Below, in pieces: positions 25,262-32,032 of a DNA stretch of 64,000 nucleotides; position 1 is the first letter of the stretch, and each line of letters begins with the position of its first letter. Position numbers and translations under genes: made by a program. The notes under the pieces were generated by a model. It saw only the letters and a program-made list of their open reading frames with translations, did not search any database and was not told where the DNA came from. Location: assembly GCA_963819655.1 (NCBI GenBank), contig CAWFXA010000002.1:1152001-1216000 (forward strand), read 5' to 3'. Source of the stretch: an uncultured Chloroflexia bacterium. Its GTDB lineage: Bacteria > Chloroflexota > Limnocylindria > Limnocylindrales > CSP1-4.

Positions 25262-26893
25262 TCAGGCCCGGTCGGCGACCGGCGTCGGCGTCTCGGTGAC
25301 AGCCCACTTCCGGATCGGATCGCGCTTGATCTTGAGGGTATGGGTCCGCGGGAAGTCCTCGTCAGGCCATCGCCGCCAGCCGGCGATCCGCTGGTTGGGG
25401 CCCAGCGCAGCGTTGGCGGCCTTGACCGCCACCTCGATGCGAGCTTTCGTCGCGGGCACGTCCTCGCCTTCGAGCGCGAGCACCACCGCCTCGATCCGCC
25501 CCGGCGCGGTCTCGACGACCACGGCGTCGCGCACGTCGGCGATCCGGAGCGCGTTCTCGATGTCCTCCGGGTACACGTTGAAGCCGTTGGGCAGCACGAT
25601 CATGTCCTTGATCCGGCCGCTGAGGATGAGCCTGCCTTCGGAGTCGTAGCGGCCGAGGTCGCCGGTCCGGTACCAGCCGTCGTCCGTGAACGCCTGGGCC
25701 GTCAGCTCCGGAGCGTTCCAGTACCCCTTGAACACCGACCGACCGCGGAACTGGATCTCGCCATCCGGTGCGATGCGCATCTCGATCCCCTCGGGCACGC
25801 GGCCGACGGTGCCTGGCTCATGGTCCGCGAGCGTCCCGCACGCGCCGGTGCCGGTCTCGGTCGTGCCGTAGCCCTGCAGGACCGTGACGCCGATGTCCTC
25901 CCACGCCCCCTGGAGCGCCGGCGGCAGGAACGCCCCGGACGACAGGAACAGGCGGAAGTGGCCGCCAAGCTGTTGGTGGATGCTGCGGAACAGGACTCGC
26001 CGGATCGCGAACGGCAACCGACGCGCGATACCCCGGAGCCGTTCCACCGTCGCTGTCCGGCCGCGCTTGGCGATCTCACGCTCGATGGCGCTCCAGAACA
26101 GGTCGAGAACCTGCGGCACCACGACCATGCTGGTGACCCGATGGTCGCGCAGGGCATCGAAGATGACCCGCGGGTTCCGGCTCCGGACATAGAGCACGTC
26201 AGCGCCGACATCGAGCGCGTAGTACAGCGCGACCGCCTGTTCGAGCAGGTGCGACAGGGGGAGCAGCGAGACGATCCGGTGCTCCATCGGCGGCACGATC
26301 CGGTGGAACGACTCGATCGAAGCCACGACGTTGTCGTGTGCCAGCCGGACGCCCTTGGGCGTGCCCGTCGTGCCGCTCGTGAACACGAGCTCGAAGAGAT
26401 CATCGGCCGCAGGGCGCTTCCAGGCCGCCTGGCGGGCCTCCCAGTCGACCGGGAATGCCGGGTCGTCCGCGGCCGGTTCGGCCGTCAGTACGTCAACCGT
26501 CGTGGTCGGGAAATCGGCCAGACCGGCTTCGCGCGGATCGGGGGCATCACGCCCGGTCCCGAGCACGAGGTGACGGGCACCCGACGCTCGGACGATCGTG
26601 TCGATCGCGTCGCTGGACATCCGCAGATCGAGCGGGACGATGACGAGCCGGGCGTGCATCGCGCCGAAATAGGCGGCGGGTAGCTCGGGCGTCGACGGGC
26701 TCCAGGTCAGGATCCGGTCACCCGGCTCCAGGTCGAGAGCGCGCAGCCGCCAGGCGGCGATCCGCGACCGTCGATCGAGATCCCGGTAGGTCCAGGTCGT
26801 GGTCGATCCGTCGTCATGGCGCACGCCCAGCGCCGGCCGGTCGCCGTAGCGCGCCACGGCAGTCTCGAGCAGGTCGATCAGGGTTCGCGACAA
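25262..26893 (-). CDS. long-chain acyl-CoA synthetase-like AMP-binding enzyme
   Basis: FTSGTTGTPKG, LPLSH, QGYGTTE, WYRTGDLG, GRIKD, FPRTHTLK. Confidence 0.88.
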   Translation of the reverse strand: MSRTLIDLLETAVARYGDRPALGVRHDDGSTTTWTYRDLDRRSRIAAWRLRALDLEPGDRILTWSPSTPELPAAYFGAMHARLVIVPLDLRMSSDAIDTIVRASGARHLVLGTGRDAPDPREAGLADFPTTTVDVLTAEPAADDPAFPVDWEARQAAWKRPAADDLFELVFTSGTTGTPKGVRLAHDNVVASIESFHRIVPPMEHRIVSLLPLSHLLEQAVALYYALDVGADVLYVRSRNPRVIFDALRDHRVTSMVVVPQVLDLFWSAIEREIAKRGRTATVERLRGIARRLPFAIRRVLFRSIHQQLGGHFRLFLSSGAFLPPALQGAWEDIGVTVLQGYGTTETGTGACGTLADHEPGTVGRVPEGIEMRIAPDGEIQFRGRSVFKGYWNAPELTAQAFTDDGWYRTGDLGRYDSEGRLILSGRIKDMIVLPNGFNVYPEDIENALRIADVRDAVVVETAPGRIEAVVLALEGEDVPATKARIEVAVKAANAALGPNQRIAGWRRWPDEDFPRTHTLKIKRDPIRKWAVTETPTPVADRA

Positions 26894-27026
26894 GGGCGTA
26901 CCTCGGGCGTGACGGGTCGTCGCATCCTACGACGCGCGAGTCGATCCATCGTTTGCCGATCGGTCTTGCGCTCGCGATCGCACCGGAGGCTGCCACCGGC
27001 GACGCCTACTCGCTAGGATCGGTGCG

Positions 27027-27842
27027 ATGCACCCGATCCTGGTCGAGCTCGGTCCCTGGCGCATCCTGACCCATGACGCCTTCACCGTGCTCGCCCTGGC
27101 CGTCGGCCTGGCGCTTTACTACCGCGACCTCCGTCGCCGGGGCTGGCTCGACCCGACGATCGTCGCGATCTCCGTCGCCGCGATCGCGGGCGCGTTGATC
27201 GGCGCGCGGCTGATCACGGCGTGGGAGCACCTCGAGTACTACGCGGCGATGGACGGCATGCCCCTGACGGCCGCCATCGAGCACAGCGGCAAGAGCCTCA
27301 TCGGAGCGCTCGCCGGCGGGTACGTGGCGACCGCCCTGGCCAAGCGGGCGGCCGGCTACACACGCTCGACCGGGGACGCCTACCTGCTGGCGATCCCCGT
27401 GGCGACTGCCATCGGTCGACTCGGATGCTTCCTGTCCGAGTTGCCGCTCGGCACCCCGACTGACCTCCCGTGGGGGATGACCGTGTCGGCCGAGGCGGCC
27501 GCGGCCTTCGCCCGCTGCCCGGGCTGCGACCTGCCGATGCACCCATCGATGCTGTATGAGATCGGCTTCAACGTCATGGCGGCACTGGTCATCGTGCAGT
27601 ACCGCGATCGCGTCACCGTCCCGGGCGACGGGCTTCGGTTGTATCTGCTCGCCGCCGCGATCTTCCGGTTCCTCGTCGAGTTCGTCCGCGGGAACGAACC
27701 CCAGGCGCTCGGGTTGACCGGACCGCAGTGGGTCCTGATCCCGCTCATCGGGCTGCTCATCGTCCATTTCGTGCGCCAATGGCGGCGCGGCGCCTATGCC
27801 GTCCCGCCGGCGCCCGTCCCCATCCCGCTCGGAGGGACCTAG
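27027..27842 (+). CDS. atypical prolipoprotein diacylglyceryl transferase (Lgt) family protein
   Basis: GARL, GRLGCFL, HPSMLYE, RFLVEFVR; the usual FHGG motif is replaced by LIGA. Confidence 0.8.
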   Translation: MHPILVELGPWRILTHDAFTVLALAVGLALYYRDLRRRGWLDPTIVAISVAAIAGALIGARLITAWEHLEYYAAMDGMPLTAAIEHSGKSLIGALAGGYVATALAKRAAGYTRSTGDAYLLAIPVATAIGRLGCFLSELPLGTPTDLPWGMTVSAEAAAAFARCPGCDLPMHPSMLYEIGFNVMAALVIVQYRDRVTVPGDGLRLYLLAAAIFRFLVEFVRGNEPQALGLTGPQWVLIPLIGLLIVHFVRQWRRGAYAVPPAPVPIPLGGT

Positions 27843-27845
27843 ACC

Positions 27846-28340
27846 GTGACCGAGGAACGAGGCCCGACCGTCCCAGCCGTCGACGAGGACCGGATCGGGG
27901 TCCTGGCCGCCTACGTCCAGACGAACCGCGATCGATTCACCGACGAGGCCCTGCGCGAGGCGGCGCGGACCGCCGGCTACACCGACGCCGAGATCGCGGC
28001 CGCGTGGTCCGCGGCTGCCGACCCGAGCAAGTCCATCCCGACCGAGCGTCGAACGAATATCGGTGCGGTCATCGCGATCGCAGTCGGTTTTGCGATCGCC
28101 GTCTACGGCGCGGCCGCGCTCCTCGGCTCGTTGGGGGTGGGCGACATCGCCGCGATCGTCGGGATCGGCCTCGTGCTCGCGGGGATGGTCGGCTGGGTCC
28201 TGCTGCGCGACTCGCGGCCGTCGCTGGCGGCCGGGCTCGGTTGGGGCGTTCTCCTGGCCGTCGGCCTGCCGATCATCATCGTCCTTGGCATCCTCGGGAT
28301 CTGCCTTGTCGGCGCCAGCATCCCGATCGCACCCCAGTGA
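27846..28340 (+). CDS. hypothetical membrane protein (soluble N-domain, 3 TM, C-terminal Cys)
   Basis: 3 nt after the lgt-like stop; hydrophobic segments, the last ending LGILGICL. Confidence 0.65.
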   Translation: MTEERGPTVPAVDEDRIGVLAAYVQTNRDRFTDEALREAARTAGYTDAEIAAAWSAAADPSKSIPTERRTNIGAVIAIAVGFAIAVYGAAALLGSLGVGDIAAIVGIGLVLAGMVGWVLLRDSRPSLAAGLGWGVLLAVGLPIIIVLGILGICLVGASIPIAPQ

Positions 28341-28351
28341 CGGAGGTCGCC

Positions 28352-29920
28352 ATGCTCGCTCTGCGCCCGTATCTCCCGCTGCGCATGGTGCTGACGGTCT
28401 GCGGCCACTGCTTCAGCGAGGACCCCGATCGCGACATCGACTATGAGACCGACATCCTGCAGGGCAACCTCGTCGCCATGGACGGTGCGGTCTACCTGCG
28501 ACGGACGTGCCGGCGTGGCCATGGCGAGGTCATGAGCCTGTACGAGGAGGATCACGGACGGTGGGAATACCTCCAGCAATGGCGCACCCCGACGCGCGAG
28601 ATCATCCCGGACACCATCGGCAACGCCGCGCCGATCCCGATGGGCTATGCCGACGGGCTGGGCGATCTCCAGACCCAGCACTCGTGCGTGCTCCTGCTGG
28701 ACATCACCGAGAACTGCAATCTCGAATGCCCGACGTGTTTCGCCGCCGCCGCTCCCGGCATCGGCCGTTTCGCCCGGCTGCCGCACATCCTCCGATCGCT
28801 CGATGCCTCGGTACTGCGCGAAGGCGGCCGGATCGACGTGCTGATGCTGTCGGGCGGGGAGCCGACGGTCCATCCCGAGGTGCTCGAGATCATCGAAGCC
28901 GCGACCGAGCGGAATGTCACGCGCGTGATCCTCAATACGAACGGCATCCGGATCGCGAAGGACGACCGGTTCGTGGCCGCGCTGGGACGGCTCCGCGGCC
29001 GGGTCGAGGTCTATCTCCAGTTCGACGGCTTCGAGCTGGAATCACACCTGTACCACCGGGGCGAAGACCTTCGTGACATCAAGGCGGAGGCGCTCCGGCG
29101 TCTTGCCGCGGAACGGGTCTTCACGACGCTGGCCGTCGCCGTCGCGGAGGGCGTCAACGACCGCGAGGTCGGCGCGATCGCCGACTTCGCCCTTGGCACC
29201 GACTACATCGCCGGGGTCGCCTTTCAGCCGGTCTTCGGGTCGGGCCGGATGAGTCCGATCGACCCGATGCGTCGAGTCACGACAACGGGGACCCTCAACA
29301 GGCTCGGCGAGCAGACGGCCGATCGCGTCGGGCCGGACGATTTCATCGCCTTGCCGTGCTCCCACCCCGATTGTTCGTCGATCACCTATTTCATCCAGGG
29401 CGATAGCGGCGAGTGGCGCTCCGTGCCGCGCATGCTCGGGGAAGATCGCTTGAAGGAGTATCTCGGGCTGGTGTCGAACCGGATCGCCCCGGACGACGCG
29501 ATGTGGGCGGCGCTCGTCGGGATGATGTCCGAGACCACGCTCGTGTCCCGACCCGAGCTGGTGGACCACCTCCTCCGGGTCTGCGAGGCGTGCGATCTCG
29601 GCGTGACGGGCTTCGTGAAGTCGCTCGGTCGGTGGCTGTTCGATCGAGAGGCGGCCGTCCAGGAGATCGCTCTACGGGTCAAACGCTTCTCGGTCAAGTC
29701 GTTCATGGATGCCTGGACGCTCAATGTCGAGCGGTTGCAGCAATGCTGCGTCCACGTCGGGTCGACCGACGGCGAGGCCAACCCCGTCCGCGTCCCGTTC
29801 TGCGCCCGCCAGTTGTTCGGCGGGCTGCGCCGGACGACGTCCGCCGGCATGGTGCCGGCGCGCGAGCTGGTGTCGCTCGATGACGTCCGTGCCCGCCGAT
29901 CCGCGGCGGTTCGACCATGA
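28352..29920 (+). CDS. radical SAM enzyme, Tes/GDGT-MAS (MJ0619)-like
   Basis: N-terminal CGHC...CRRGHG; CNLECPTCFA; SGGEPTVHP, NTNGIR, YLQFDG, FQP; C-terminal CSHPDC, FMD, CCVH, VPFC; SD GGAGG. Confidence 0.8.
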   Translation: MLALRPYLPLRMVLTVCGHCFSEDPDRDIDYETDILQGNLVAMDGAVYLRRTCRRGHGEVMSLYEEDHGRWEYLQQWRTPTREIIPDTIGNAAPIPMGYADGLGDLQTQHSCVLLLDITENCNLECPTCFAAAAPGIGRFARLPHILRSLDASVLREGGRIDVLMLSGGEPTVHPEVLEIIEAATERNVTRVILNTNGIRIAKDDRFVAALGRLRGRVEVYLQFDGFELESHLYHRGEDLRDIKAEALRRLAAERVFTTLAVAVAEGVNDREVGAIADFALGTDYIAGVAFQPVFGSGRMSPIDPMRRVTTTGTLNRLGEQTADRVGPDDFIALPCSHPDCSSITYFIQGDSGEWRSVPRMLGEDRLKEYLGLVSNRIAPDDAMWAALVGMMSETTLVSRPELVDHLLRVCEACDLGVTGFVKSLGRWLFDREAAVQEIALRVKRFSVKSFMDAWTLNVERLQQCCVHVGSTDGEANPVRVPFCARQLFGGLRRTTSAGMVPARELVSLDDVRARRSAAVRP

Positions 29921-30243
29921 GCGCGGCACCCGCAGGGACGGTCGGGCCTGCCACGTACGTCCGACCGCCACTGTCCCAGCCGGAGAAATACGAGCGCATG
30001 GCGTTCACGTTCTGCCGGATGGGGACGGTCGGCTTGATCGCCTGGGTCGTGACGCCGGCCGTCTTCGTCCTGGTCGTGGCGGTCGTCGCGATCGCTTTCT
30101 ACGCGAAGTCGATCACGCTGGGCGTGTCGTGGAGCAAGTGTTTCCTGCGTCGGCCGACCCTGATCATCGGAGTCTGGGCCGCGATCGCGATCGCCGACCT
30201 GGTCTGGCTGTTCGTCCTGGGACAACGCTGGCCGGTGGGGTGA
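29917..30243 (+). CDS. small membrane protein coupled to the radical SAM gene
   Basis: ATGA overlap; 2-3 TM; two Cys (FTFCRM, SKCFLRR). Confidence 0.65.
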   Translation: MSAAPAGTVGPATYVRPPLSQPEKYERMAFTFCRMGTVGLIAWVVTPAVFVLVVAVVAIAFYAKSITLGVSWSKCFLRRPTLIIGVWAAIAIADLVWLFVLGQRWPVG

Positions 30244-30274: not shown

Positions 30275-30739
30275 CTAGGAGTCCATCGACCGCAGGCGTG
30301 CCCGGTGCCGGTCGGTCAGATCCCGCATGGCGCGGAGCTGGTCGCGCATCGCCGCGAGCTGGGTGAGCGTGAGACCGTCCAGGATCGGCTCTCCGTCCGC
30401 GACGAGTGGCCCGTAGAGGGCGCCGACGCGTTGCAGGCCATTCTCCGTGAGCTCGACGAAGACCTGCCGGCGGTCGCGATCGTGGCGTCGTCGCCGCACG
30501 AAGTCCTTGCGCTCGAGGCGGTCGATCATCGACGTGGTGGCCGCGGCAGACAGCCCGGTCGCCTCAGCGAGCCGCGTCGCCGTCATCGGTCCCTCGGTGA
30601 GCCAGTCGAGGCAGCGCAGGTCGGTGGGGTTGAGCCCCAGGACGTGGCCGACTTCGTCATCGAACGCTTGCGTACTGCGCTGGTACGCCTGCAGCGCCCG
30701 ACCGACCTCGGTGATGAGCGGTTGACGTTTCGGGGGCAT
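30275..30739 (-). CDS. MarR-family regulator
   Basis: LGLNPTDLRCL, TTSMIDRLERK, DRDRRQVFV. Confidence 0.88.
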   Translation of the reverse strand: MPPKRQPLITEVGRALQAYQRSTQAFDDEVGHVLGLNPTDLRCLDWLTEGPMTATRLAEATGLSAAATTSMIDRLERKDFVRRRRHDRDRRQVFVELTENGLQRVGALYGPLVADGEPILDGLTLTQLAAMRDQLRAMRDLTDRHRARLRSMDS

Positions 30740-30750
30740 CCATCATATCC

Positions 30751-30763
30751 TTCGACTATCGAA
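30751..30763. promoter_or_regulatory. candidate MarR operator
   Basis: Inverted repeat TTCGA-cta-TCGAA in the AT-rich divergent intergenic region. Confidence 0.45.
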
Positions 30764-30811
30764 AGGTCAGATATACGAACCATACCAAAGTCGTAAGGAA
30801 GGATAGCATTG

Positions 30812-32032
30812 ATGGAAGCACTCATCGTCGGAGCGGGCGTGGCCGGTCCAGTCACCGCCATGGCGCTCCACAAGGCCGGCATCGGCGCACGGATCGTGGA
30901 GGCTCATGAGGCCGACGGTGGCGACGTCGGTTCGTACTTCACCGTCTCGCCGAACGGACTTGACGCAGTGGACGCGATCGATGCCCTCCCGGTCGCCATC
31001 CGCGAAAGTTTCCCGACGCGGCGCAACGTCATGCGCGGCAGCTCGGGCCGAGTGCTCGGCGAGATCCCGCTCGGGACGCCGCTCGCCGACGGCACCCCGG
31101 CACTCACGATGAAGCGGACGCGCCTTGCGCGGCGCCTCGCCGACGAGGCCACGCGGCGGGGCATCGCGATCGACTACGGGCACCGGCTCCGCGACGCGAC
31201 CCGGGTCGGCGACCGGATCGTCGCCACCTTCGACGACGGTTCGACGGTGACCGCCGACCTGCTCATCGGTGCGGACGGCGTCCACTCTGTCGTTCGGAGC
31301 CTGATCGACCCGTTCGCTCCGAGTGGCCGTTACGTCGGCCTGACGAACTTCGGCGGGATCACCCCGGCAGGCGCTGTGTCCGAGCCGGGCCTCGAGCCCG
31401 AATCGTGGCAGTTCATGTTCGGTCGTGGCGCGTTCTTCGGCGCGCACCTGGTCCCGGGCGGTGATGTCGTGTGGTTCGTCAACGCGCCGCGCGACGCGAT
31501 CGATCGCGAGGAACGCGACAGCACGACCGACGAAACGTGGAAGGCCTGGCTGGCCTCCCTGGTCGACGATGATGCCGGACCCGCCGCCGACCTTATCCGG
31601 TCGGGGCGCCTCGAGCTCGCCGGCGACAGCACCTATGACCTGGGCCACGTGCCCGTGTGGCATCGGGACCGGATGATCGTGATCGGCGACGCCGCACATG
31701 CGCCCGCCCCGAGCTCCGGGCAGGGGGCGTCGATGGCGATGGAAGACGGCGTCCTCCTCGCGATGGCGCTGCGAGACGCGCCGTCGATCGAGGCCGCATT
31801 CGCCGCCTACGAGGGGACCCGCCGGGAACGGGTGGAGCGGATCGTGGCCTACGGTGCACGCAGCAGCGATTCGAAGATCCCGGGCAAGGTCGGACGGATC
31901 GCGCGTGACGCGTTCATGCGGCTGGCATTCCGCTTCTTCGTCACCGAGCGGCAGCTGGCGTGGATGTACGGCCATCGGATCGATTGGGACGCCTCGGTCG
32001 CACCCGCGTCTGACCCGCTTCCGGCTGTTTGA
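30812..32032 (+). CDS. FAD-dependent monooxygenase
   Basis: [21 protein letters not shown]...[11 protein letters not shown]. Confidence 0.88.

Follow-up and report, generated by a model that had tools for sequence, protein, structure and literature searches.

Which reaction could be shared by an Lgt-family protein, an enzyme of the radical S-adenosylmethionine (SAM) type resembling tetraether synthase (Tes, also GDGT-MAS) and two small membrane proteins that are encoded in one compact cluster? The question is raised by positions 25262 to 30243 of a 64,000-nucleotide (nt) stretch of DNA, here termed the window (GenBank assembly GCA_963819655.1, contig CAWFXA010000002.1, positions 1,152,001 to 1,216,000), from an uncultured Chloroflexia bacterium of the Limnocylindria. 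An earlier note, made from the sequence alone, had offered two functional alternatives: the module either makes membrane-spanning lipids, or it attaches and cross-links lipid on dedicated small membrane proteins. Judged by the comparative analysis described here, the small-protein alternative appears to fit the sequence evidence better. It is put forward tentatively that the four genes form one membrane machine which lipid-modifies its own small proteins.

The following features were annotated in the locus:

25262-26893, minus strand: AMP-binding (FadD-like) acyl-adenylating enzyme, 543 amino acids (aa); PF00501, 4.3e-68
26894-27026, no strand: divergent intergenic region of 133 nt from the AMP-binding gene to the lgt-like start, presumed promoter region
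27027-27842, plus strand: Lgt-family paralog, 271 aa; PF01790
27846-28340, plus strand: m164, small membrane protein of 164 aa, candidate lipidation substrate; GTG start, no Pfam or NCBIfam family
28352-29920, plus strand: Tes/GDGT-MAS-like radical SAM enzyme (P0001), 522 aa; profile and fold matches
29917-30243, plus strand: m108, small membrane protein of 108 aa; ATGA overlap with the radical SAM gene

The module comprises the four plus-strand genes (27027-30243), with junctions of 3 nt, 11 nt and a 4-nt ATGA overlap. The open reading frames (ORFs) and their spacing of 3, 11 and −4 nt were confirmed as given in the earlier note, as was the back-to-back position of the acyl-adenylating gene, which is read from the minus strand and separated by 133 nt from the beginning of the lgt-like gene. 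By its ATGA overlap, m108 appears to be translationally coupled to the radical SAM gene, whose ATG (28352) is preceded by GGAGG at a distance of 6 nt. An ORF of 730 aa starting at 27728 was rejected as spurious: it merely prolongs the radical SAM frame upstream in this DNA of ~70% G+C (66-73% in the window), and the orthologs begin at the ATG of 28352. A simple scan of 26894-27026 identified no sigma-70-like site, so that no promoter is shown for this region. The promoter and terminator scan gave no promoter-like site and two terminator-like sites, both inside genes, and was uninformative.

For the analysis of gene linkage, loci were taken from a genome collection (256 stretches encoding relatives) and from metagenome contigs (561 stretches). 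The counts given for these two sets refer to the best 80 of each, namely 79 genome loci with 58-99% identity and metagenome loci with 44-91% identity; loci with a radical SAM identity below 58% are called distant. The best 80 stretches of the genome collection belonged almost entirely to Chloroflexota. The Lgt paralog was found beside the radical SAM enzyme in 70 of the 79 genome loci and the m108-like gene in 74. Seven of the nine genome loci without Lgt have less than 1.7 kb of upstream DNA, and in L037 the 2.4 kb upstream are mostly filled by three genes with the m164-type N-terminal domain (N-domain) described below. L072 is a real exception, and its genome holds a matching Lgt paralog on another contig. 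All 25 metagenome loci with flanks of no less than 2.5 kb upstream and 1.8 kb downstream contain the Lgt paralog (5/5 close and 20/20 distant). An m108-like gene was located 3′ of the radical SAM gene in 19/19 close and 35/42 distant metagenome loci with enough downstream DNA, and in 62 of the 80 metagenome loci overall. The gene order varies by clade (Lgt-x-rSAM-m108, rSAM-m108-Lgt or rSAM-Lgt-x-m108, with rSAM for the radical SAM gene), and the trio persists where the flanking HIT, PrmA, S21 and GatB/YqeY genes are replaced by others. Among 24 other genomes of the window's genus, many of them incomplete, five encode an ortholog with at least 74% identity.

A second GTDB phylum was sampled with 301 genomes (centre genome 'Actinomycetes bacterium'), 75 of which encode a radical SAM homolog at E <= 1e-30. 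This sample shares no genome with a Chloroflexota sample that was drawn for comparison. In 30 loci of this phylum with flanks of only 1.5 kb, the Lgt paralog was found in 25, mostly directly downstream, and an m108-like gene in nine. Of the 41 second-phylum genomes searched for both genes, 11 encode the radical SAM enzyme, and it is these same 11, and none of the remaining 30, that carry a second PF01790 gene; the two genes lie within 2 kb of each other in nine of the 11. This co-occurrence extends to radical SAM enzymes only 35-42% identical to P0001. No statistic is attached to it, since related genomes are not independent. The module sits on megabase-size contigs in this phylum. Moreover, three of nine long or offset homologs scanned were found to be fusions of Lgt, an HMPTM zinc ribbon and the radical SAM enzyme (P0188, 733 aa; P0217, 671 aa; and the fragment P0213).

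Since the gene set recurs in most related loci with long enough flanks, its association is far beyond chance. The radical SAM-lgt pairing noticed earlier is conserved and sometimes fused; the combination is real, and it is not peculiar to the window genome, being widespread in bacteria including the second phylum. Its spread was confirmed in two GTDB phyla and in untyped metagenome clades.

Lgt transfers diacylglyceryl to a cysteine thiol. The Lgt-like protein of the module scored 112.8 bits against PF01790 (gathering cut-off 24.9) and 55.5 bits against TIGR00544, which is below the equivalog cut-off of 118.9. In the window genome (3.49 Mb, 91% complete), three PF01790 genes were identified with 220.7 (canonical), 112.6 (module) and 68.5 bits. 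The gene which the earlier note had called Lgt-like is thus a true PF01790 paralog alongside a canonical Lgt elsewhere in the genome. The third gene (243642-244364, outside the window, L004) carries a Lys at the position of the R143-equivalent Arg and may encode a degenerate Lgt, as far as this substitution indicates.

The radical-SAM-linked Lgt paralogs were compared with the E. coli enzyme (5AZB/5AZC). All 36 paralogs compared, which were taken from every clade, share the residues R131, C134, H172, P173, Y177, R214, E218 and R221. Counterparts of R143, R239, E243 and R246 of E. coli are likewise kept in all 36, as are the H-P-x3-Y motif (HPSxLYE; H172-P-S-x-L-Y-E) and the T-G-D motif. In E. 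coli Lgt, Arg143, Asn146, Ser198, Glu202, Tyr235, Arg239 and Arg246 form the head-group network and His103 is the proposed base (PMC8689077). The head-group-binding residues Arg143, Arg239, Arg246, Ser198 and Glu202 have counterparts in the paralog. The His103-Gly-Gly motif was not found: Ile occupies the His103 position in the window protein and an aliphatic residue in the paralogs. This feature is not universal, since the genome's own canonical Lgt has Tyr at this position (and Asn at 146). Tyr235 is replaced by Ala in the window paralog.

The Asn146 position is taken by Cys134 in 36 of 36 paralogs. A paralog-specific catalytic change was considered here and rejected, since the same Cys occurs in 15 of the 30 second-phylum Lgts that scored best and presumably serve housekeeping (GRxGCFLNGCCYG, compared to GRLGNFINGE in E. 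coli), several of them with S-F-H-G-G. The exchange is therefore a family variant and not a lost feature. As an observation in its own right, the 'essential' Asn146 of E. coli is replaced by Cys in a large natural Lgt subfamily. In summary, the paralog differs from E. coli Lgt in being a second copy below the TIGR00544 cut-off, in its His103 and Tyr235 positions and in its linkage or fusion to a radical SAM enzyme. From the conserved residues we conclude that it probably keeps ordinary Lgt chemistry.

The small proteins m164 and m108 and their relatives gave no Pfam or NCBIfam match, and the protein Atlas returned only unnamed hypothetical clusters. In m164, a soluble N-domain of ~45 aa with the pattern Y-x4-R-x2-[FY]-T-x-E-A-L...A-G-[YH] is followed by a hydropathy profile consistent with three transmembrane helices. 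Its motif I149-L-G-I-C153 (nt 28290-28304) lies near the C-terminus and leaves a tail of 11 aa. By iterated search, the N-domain was detected in 131 ORFs from 98 of 159 loci, with one to five copies per locus. In 120 of these 131 proteins a G-x-C is found at the end of a hydrophobic stretch, and Gly is at position −2 of that cysteine in 92 of 102 m164-family proteins. The tail has a median length of 11 residues over all 120 proteins; 91 are short-tailed, with the motif C-[LVI]-[AV]-x-G-L-P in the m164 family, and 29 have a longer C-terminal part. m164 diverges fast, with 27-45% identity in many loci in which the radical SAM enzyme is 83-92% identical. With a cytoplasmic N-terminus and three transmembrane helices, both of which are deduced, the m164 cysteine should be located at the outer face, as is a lipobox cysteine. 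The presumed acceptors differ from known Lgt substrates in that G-x-C follows a third transmembrane helix and not a lipobox after a signal peptide.

Some N-domain proteins are longer. Those of L035-L058 (e.g. L039:5123-5992) have ~290 aa, consisting of the m164 N-domain, stretches consistent with three transmembrane helices, the internal G-x-C and ~140 further residues. They end with a second conserved cysteine motif, S-G-T-[VI]-[ST]-W-x-C-[ED]. Proteins ending in W-x-C-E were considered as a separate 'type 2' class; this was rejected, as 23 of 23 also have the internal G-x-C, and all 23 fall in the long-tailed group of 29. In L135, L129, L184 and L181, the small cysteine membrane proteins start with a CxxC...CxxC zinc ribbon and not with the m164-type domain, which suggests, on the level of sequence, that zinc ribbon and m164 domain may be interchangeable cytoplasmic recognition modules.

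For m108, none of the 103 distinct relatives lacks either of the two cysteines C33 (nt 30013-30015) and C75 (nt 30139-30141), not even where the adjoining radical SAM enzyme has 44-57% identity. Cys33 is located in the context A-F-T-F-C or L-R-L-C and Cys75 in S-x-C-x-L. The mean net charge was +3.9 for the Cys75 loop and +1.7 for the N-tail. The structure model, with a predicted local distance difference test score (pLDDT) of 72.9, contains helices at 21-42, 48-67 and 80-100, and the first hydrophobic stretch is broken at W43-P47. This weakly suggests that the first segment is re-entrant, with both cysteines at the cytoplasmic face.

The radical SAM protein contains every motif quoted in the earlier note: C17xxC20, C53x3H57, C122x3C126x2C129, YLQFDG (221), FQP (291), CSHPDC (336), FMD (451), CCVH (465) and VPFC (481). 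Its C-terminal cluster cysteines are C336, C341, C465, C466 and C484. In a search against solved structures, the sequence matched GDGT-MAS of M. jannaschii (MJ0619; 7TOL) with an E-value of 2.2e-35, and the next best match had 2e-4. An AlphaFold2 model (85-row alignment, mean pLDDT 90.8) was aligned to 7TOM/7TOL with a TM-score of 0.73-0.78 over 534-538 columns (E 1e-36). The next structural match was SkfB with a TM-score of 0.35 in the radical SAM core only; SkfB, SuiB and CteB-type entries ranged between 0.31 and 0.35. The four-domain fold of rubredoxin, N-cluster domain, radical SAM core and C-cluster domain was found in the model, and the enzyme is predicted to be a full-length structural homolog of GDGT-MAS/Tes. 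A grouping with MoaA or other SPASM families, which the earlier note had named as refuting its assignment, is not supported by the structure prediction, since the match to 7TOM/7TOL is full-length and the next one reaches only 0.35. The assignment as a Tes/GDGT-MAS-type enzyme holds both by sequence and by fold.

It is not a strict match. Against the NCBIfam Tes model NF045702 the enzyme scored 179.1 bits (equivalog cut-off 450). The best NCBIfam model was TrsS (NF045646) with 221.1 bits and an E-value of 2e-65, which is again below the cut-off of 490. Ten of ten representative homologs from across the tree were below both equivalog cut-offs. TrsS, many members of which contain selenocysteine, is itself uncharacterised and appears only as a table entry in PMC13188914. 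The window gene contains no in-frame stop/TGA between 28352 and 29917. Second-phylum homologs with 37-39% identity (G155, G110, G253 and G105) carry one in-frame TGA each, which fits the selenoprotein habit of the TrsS family, as read from sequence.

In the comparison with GDGT-MAS, ligands were taken from the figure legends of PMC9433317, and the numbering of the PDB chain was taken as native + 20, as deduced from C33/H36. The rubredoxin-like Cys3His site is kept (C17x2C20...C53x3H57), with one residue more before the His than in GDGT-MAS (C9x2C12x20C33x2H36). The [4Fe-4S]C cysteines are also kept (C341, C465/466 and C484), as are CX3CX2C, CC..PFC and FMD. The [4Fe-4S]N ligands C73, C77 and C80 have no counterpart, with no Cys between C53 and C112. 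In addition, Met439 of GDGT-MAS is replaced by Lys449 and Tyr459 by Val469, and Cys336, which is absent from GDGT-MAS, is nearly invariant among the bacterial relatives. Of the Tes layout proposed earlier, the fold, the rubredoxin site and the C-cluster were retained, whereas the equivalog cut-off, the N-cluster triad and Met439 speak against it. The host is also different, namely bacterial with ester lipids, and the tie to an Lgt paralog and cysteine-bearing small proteins was found described for no Tes.

A single Cx3Cx2C motif was identified in 142 of the 143 radical SAM ORFs (at least 450 aa) of the collected loci, which therefore lack the [4Fe-4S]N triad. In 83 representative homologs (400-800 aa), two such motifs occurred in 53, one in 28 and none in two; the fusion protein P0188 keeps two. 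With a threshold of E <= 1e-3, an exhaustive homolog search returned 4319 representatives, of which 327 also passed E <= 1e-30. In a FastTree phylogeny of 80 full-length rows, calculated without named Tes, TrsS and Mss references, P0001 was placed in a clade of 11 rows with a local support of 99. By sequence, the enzyme thus appears to represent one unnamed branch among many in a large superfamily and not a Tes in the strict sense. The window genome has only one Tes-like radical SAM gene. A congener without a close ortholog (L089, G018) encodes a 35%-identical Tes-superfamily paralog (E 3e-69), and on this sequence evidence the genus appears to host more than one branch of the superfamily.

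How could these parts act together? The reading which we regard as plausible, if short of probable, is a dedicated system for the S-lipidation of its small proteins, in which radical chemistry afterwards reworks the lipid tails. In this proposal, the lipid transfer to G-x-C, the membrane side of each cysteine, the docking on m108 and the tail chemistry are only inferred. At the outer face, the Lgt paralog would move diacylglyceryl from phosphatidylglycerol to the G-x-C cysteine of m164. E. coli Lgt has a cytoplasmic C-terminus. The radical SAM enzyme is placed in the cytoplasm because it is fused to this end of Lgt in the fusion proteins. It would dock on m108, whose invariant cysteines probably face the cytoplasm. 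Like GDGT-MAS, it would take a hydrogen from the end of an acyl tail and couple the carbon to another tail or to sulfur. In Limnocylindria, a FadD-like enzyme, or one combining AMP-binding, carrier and acyltransferase parts, might supply or repair acyl chains.

Several points weigh against this proposal. Free lipids, not lipoproteins, are the substrates of all Tes-family members characterised so far, according to PMC8941075, PMC13459092 and PMC9433317. The residue at −1 of G-x-C is usually Ile, Leu, Thr or Val, so that the motif is not a canonical lipobox, in which this position is Gly, Ala or Ser (PMC12462473). With Lgt at the outer and the radical SAM enzyme at the inner face, their joint action on one lipid needs an explanation. 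Seven of the 42 distant metagenome loci with enough downstream DNA, together with L073 and L076, contain no m108-like gene, and the role given to m108 is a guess. N-domain proteins were found in only the 98 of 159 loci mentioned above, many loci being cut short. When 23 gaps in distant loci were inspected by eye, 11 contained small membrane ORFs whose last hydrophobic stretch has a cysteine at its end or close to it, two were ambiguous and 10 were without a convincing small ORF. Finally, the topologies are derived from hydropathy and charge counts and from the m108 model of moderate confidence.

A serious rival, if a rather unlikely one, is the synthesis of free membrane-spanning lipids, in which the enzyme couples the tails of ordinary phospholipids into bolalipids of the diabolic-acid or branched glycerol dialkyl glycerol tetraether (brGDGT) type. 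On this account, which we hold to be equally doubtful in its details, the Lgt paralog would only bind or present phosphatidylglycerol, and the small proteins would be structural or regulatory. The whole GDGT-MAS fold is present, GDGT-MAS made in E. coli binds bacterial phospholipids (PMC9433317), and bacterial Tes homologs were proposed as brGDGT synthases (PMC8941075, PMC11868695). Adjoining acyl-activating and acyltransferase genes also point to lipid metabolism, and the module is carried by soil-type Chloroflexota that are abundant (runs from soil, rhizosphere and sediment). What free-lipid synthesis leaves unexplained is the invariance of the m108 cysteines (103/103), the one cysteine kept at the last hydrophobic stretch of fast-evolving, multi-copy small proteins and the retention of a complete Lgt catalytic set. 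The enzyme is, moreover, under the Tes equivalog cut-off and without the N-cluster cysteines. A functional analogue is Mss of Thermotoga maritima and Thermoanaerobacter ethanolicus, a radical SAM enzyme proposed for tail-to-tail acyl coupling (PMC13159169, PMC13459092), which is likened here by its description and not by sequence. As PMC13159169 reports that no Tes homolog was found in the Mss organisms, a different radical SAM family is indicated; the accessible parts of both papers mention no Lgt or small-protein partners for Mss.

Improbable, in our estimate, is a covalent bilayer bridge, for which the Lgt paralog would lipidate the outer-face cysteine of an m164-type protein and the Tes-like enzyme would link the tail end inward. 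The bridge partner, no more probable than the bridge itself, might be a lipid tail of the inner leaflet, so that a membrane-spanning lipid anchored to a protein would result, or a cytoplasmic-face cysteine of m108 via a C-S bond. By analogy, this C-S route, which we see as equally improbable, would reuse the carbon-sulfur intermediate chemistry of GDGT-MAS.

The small proteins could also be precursors of a lipopeptide resembling ribosomally synthesised and post-translationally modified peptides (RiPPs), which we consider quite improbable. The m164-type precursor would use its N-domain and transmembrane part as a leader, its cysteine would be lipidated, and the short tail, in a step that we hold for no less improbable, would be altered by the radical SAM enzyme and set free as a small lipopeptide by a peptidase whose gene lies elsewhere. 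The architecture, with one to five copies per locus and a variable middle between a conserved N-domain and a short conserved tail, resembles the logic of precursor peptides, and the longer C-terminal part in 29 of 120 proteins could be released as a lipoprotein. However, no conserved peptidase or exporter was found among the loci examined, the enzyme is of the lipid-binding Tes type, with TM-scores of only 0.31-0.35 to peptide maturases (SkfB, SuiB and CteB-type), and m108 is left without a role.

It is very unlikely that cysteine sulfur or a cofactor, in place of lipid tails, is the target of the radical SAM enzyme, for example with a thioether formed on m108 or m164 or with the m108 cysteines as replacements for the N-cluster ligands, and with the Lgt paralog, on the same very slight chance, lipidating independently. 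The absence of the [4Fe-4S]N triad from 142 of 143 ORFs, most of whose loci encode an m108-like protein, would agree with it, as would the carbon-sulfur bond through which GDGT-MAS chemistry proceeds (PMC9433317). It is purely inferential, however, and the fusion P0188 retains two Cx3Cx2C motifs. That an ordinary second Lgt merely adjoins an unrelated radical SAM gene in a syntenic housekeeping region has a practically negligible chance. The closest relatives are indeed syntenic over the whole region including HIT, PrmA, S21 and GatB/YqeY, but the trio is kept with different flanks, with its genes rearranged, in a second phylum and as fusions.

The acyl-adenylating gene, described by the earlier note as back-to-back with the module, did not prove to be core. 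Its protein is below every NCBIfam equivalog cut-off, and a relative was found beside the module in 41 of 114 close and in 0 of 75 distant loci. Among the 41, it is divergent upstream in 31, as in the window, and convergent downstream in two. The other eight have a same-strand gene directly upstream of lgt that encodes AMP-binding, PP-binding and PlsC-type acyltransferase domains. The gene is thus a lineage-specific accessory, and its three arrangements indicate a real link, within these lineages, to acyl-chain supply. The tri-domain gene presumably resembles an Aas-type acyl-ACP synthetase/lysophospholipid acyltransferase in domain order and role; of its parts, only the AMP-binding one is encoded by the window gene.

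Two further genes, for a regulator of the MarR family (minus strand) and for an FAD-dependent monooxygenase, separate m108 from the S21 gene (window 30275-32032). No locus other than the window and the two most closely related ones (L005 and L028) has them at this place, for which reason they were rejected as parts of the module; the pair looks like a recent insertion into otherwise conserved synteny. Parts of the lgt-like, m164 and radical SAM genes have matches of 90-99% identity among metatranscriptome contigs 151-494 nt long, which come from two studies (two runs). A reading as expression was set aside, as the shares are only 0.05-0.07 and DNA carry-over or other strains are possible sources.

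The literature search, which did not cover supplementary homolog lists, found no paper linking an Lgt homolog to a Tes-like enzyme. This agrees with the statement of the earlier note that no characterised function is known for the combination. Bacterial Tes homologs are described in the available texts as bioinformatic hits and brGDGT candidates only (PMC8941075, PMC11868695, PMC13459092). Hundreds of them are known and serve as genomic markers of brGDGT producers, with no function tested according to these parts of PMC8941075 and PMC11868695; the lipids themselves are used as palaeoclimate proxies (PMC8941075, PMC11868695).

A large branch of the bacterial Tes homologs is locked to an Lgt paralog and dedicated cysteine proteins, and the brGDGT marker may be misread there. 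Should the task of this branch differ from free tetraether synthesis, source assignments based on genes have to be revised; otherwise, bacteria make membrane-spanning lipids by an unexpected route that is assisted by proteins. With the megabase-size contigs of the second phylum, it should be possible to use knock-outs and mass spectrometry, provided that some of these genomes are from cultured strains. Lipidation of the small proteins would extend Lgt chemistry beyond the classical signal-peptide lipoproteins, and the bilayer bridge, if true, would be a new class of protein lipidation and the first function for a large bacterial branch of Tes.

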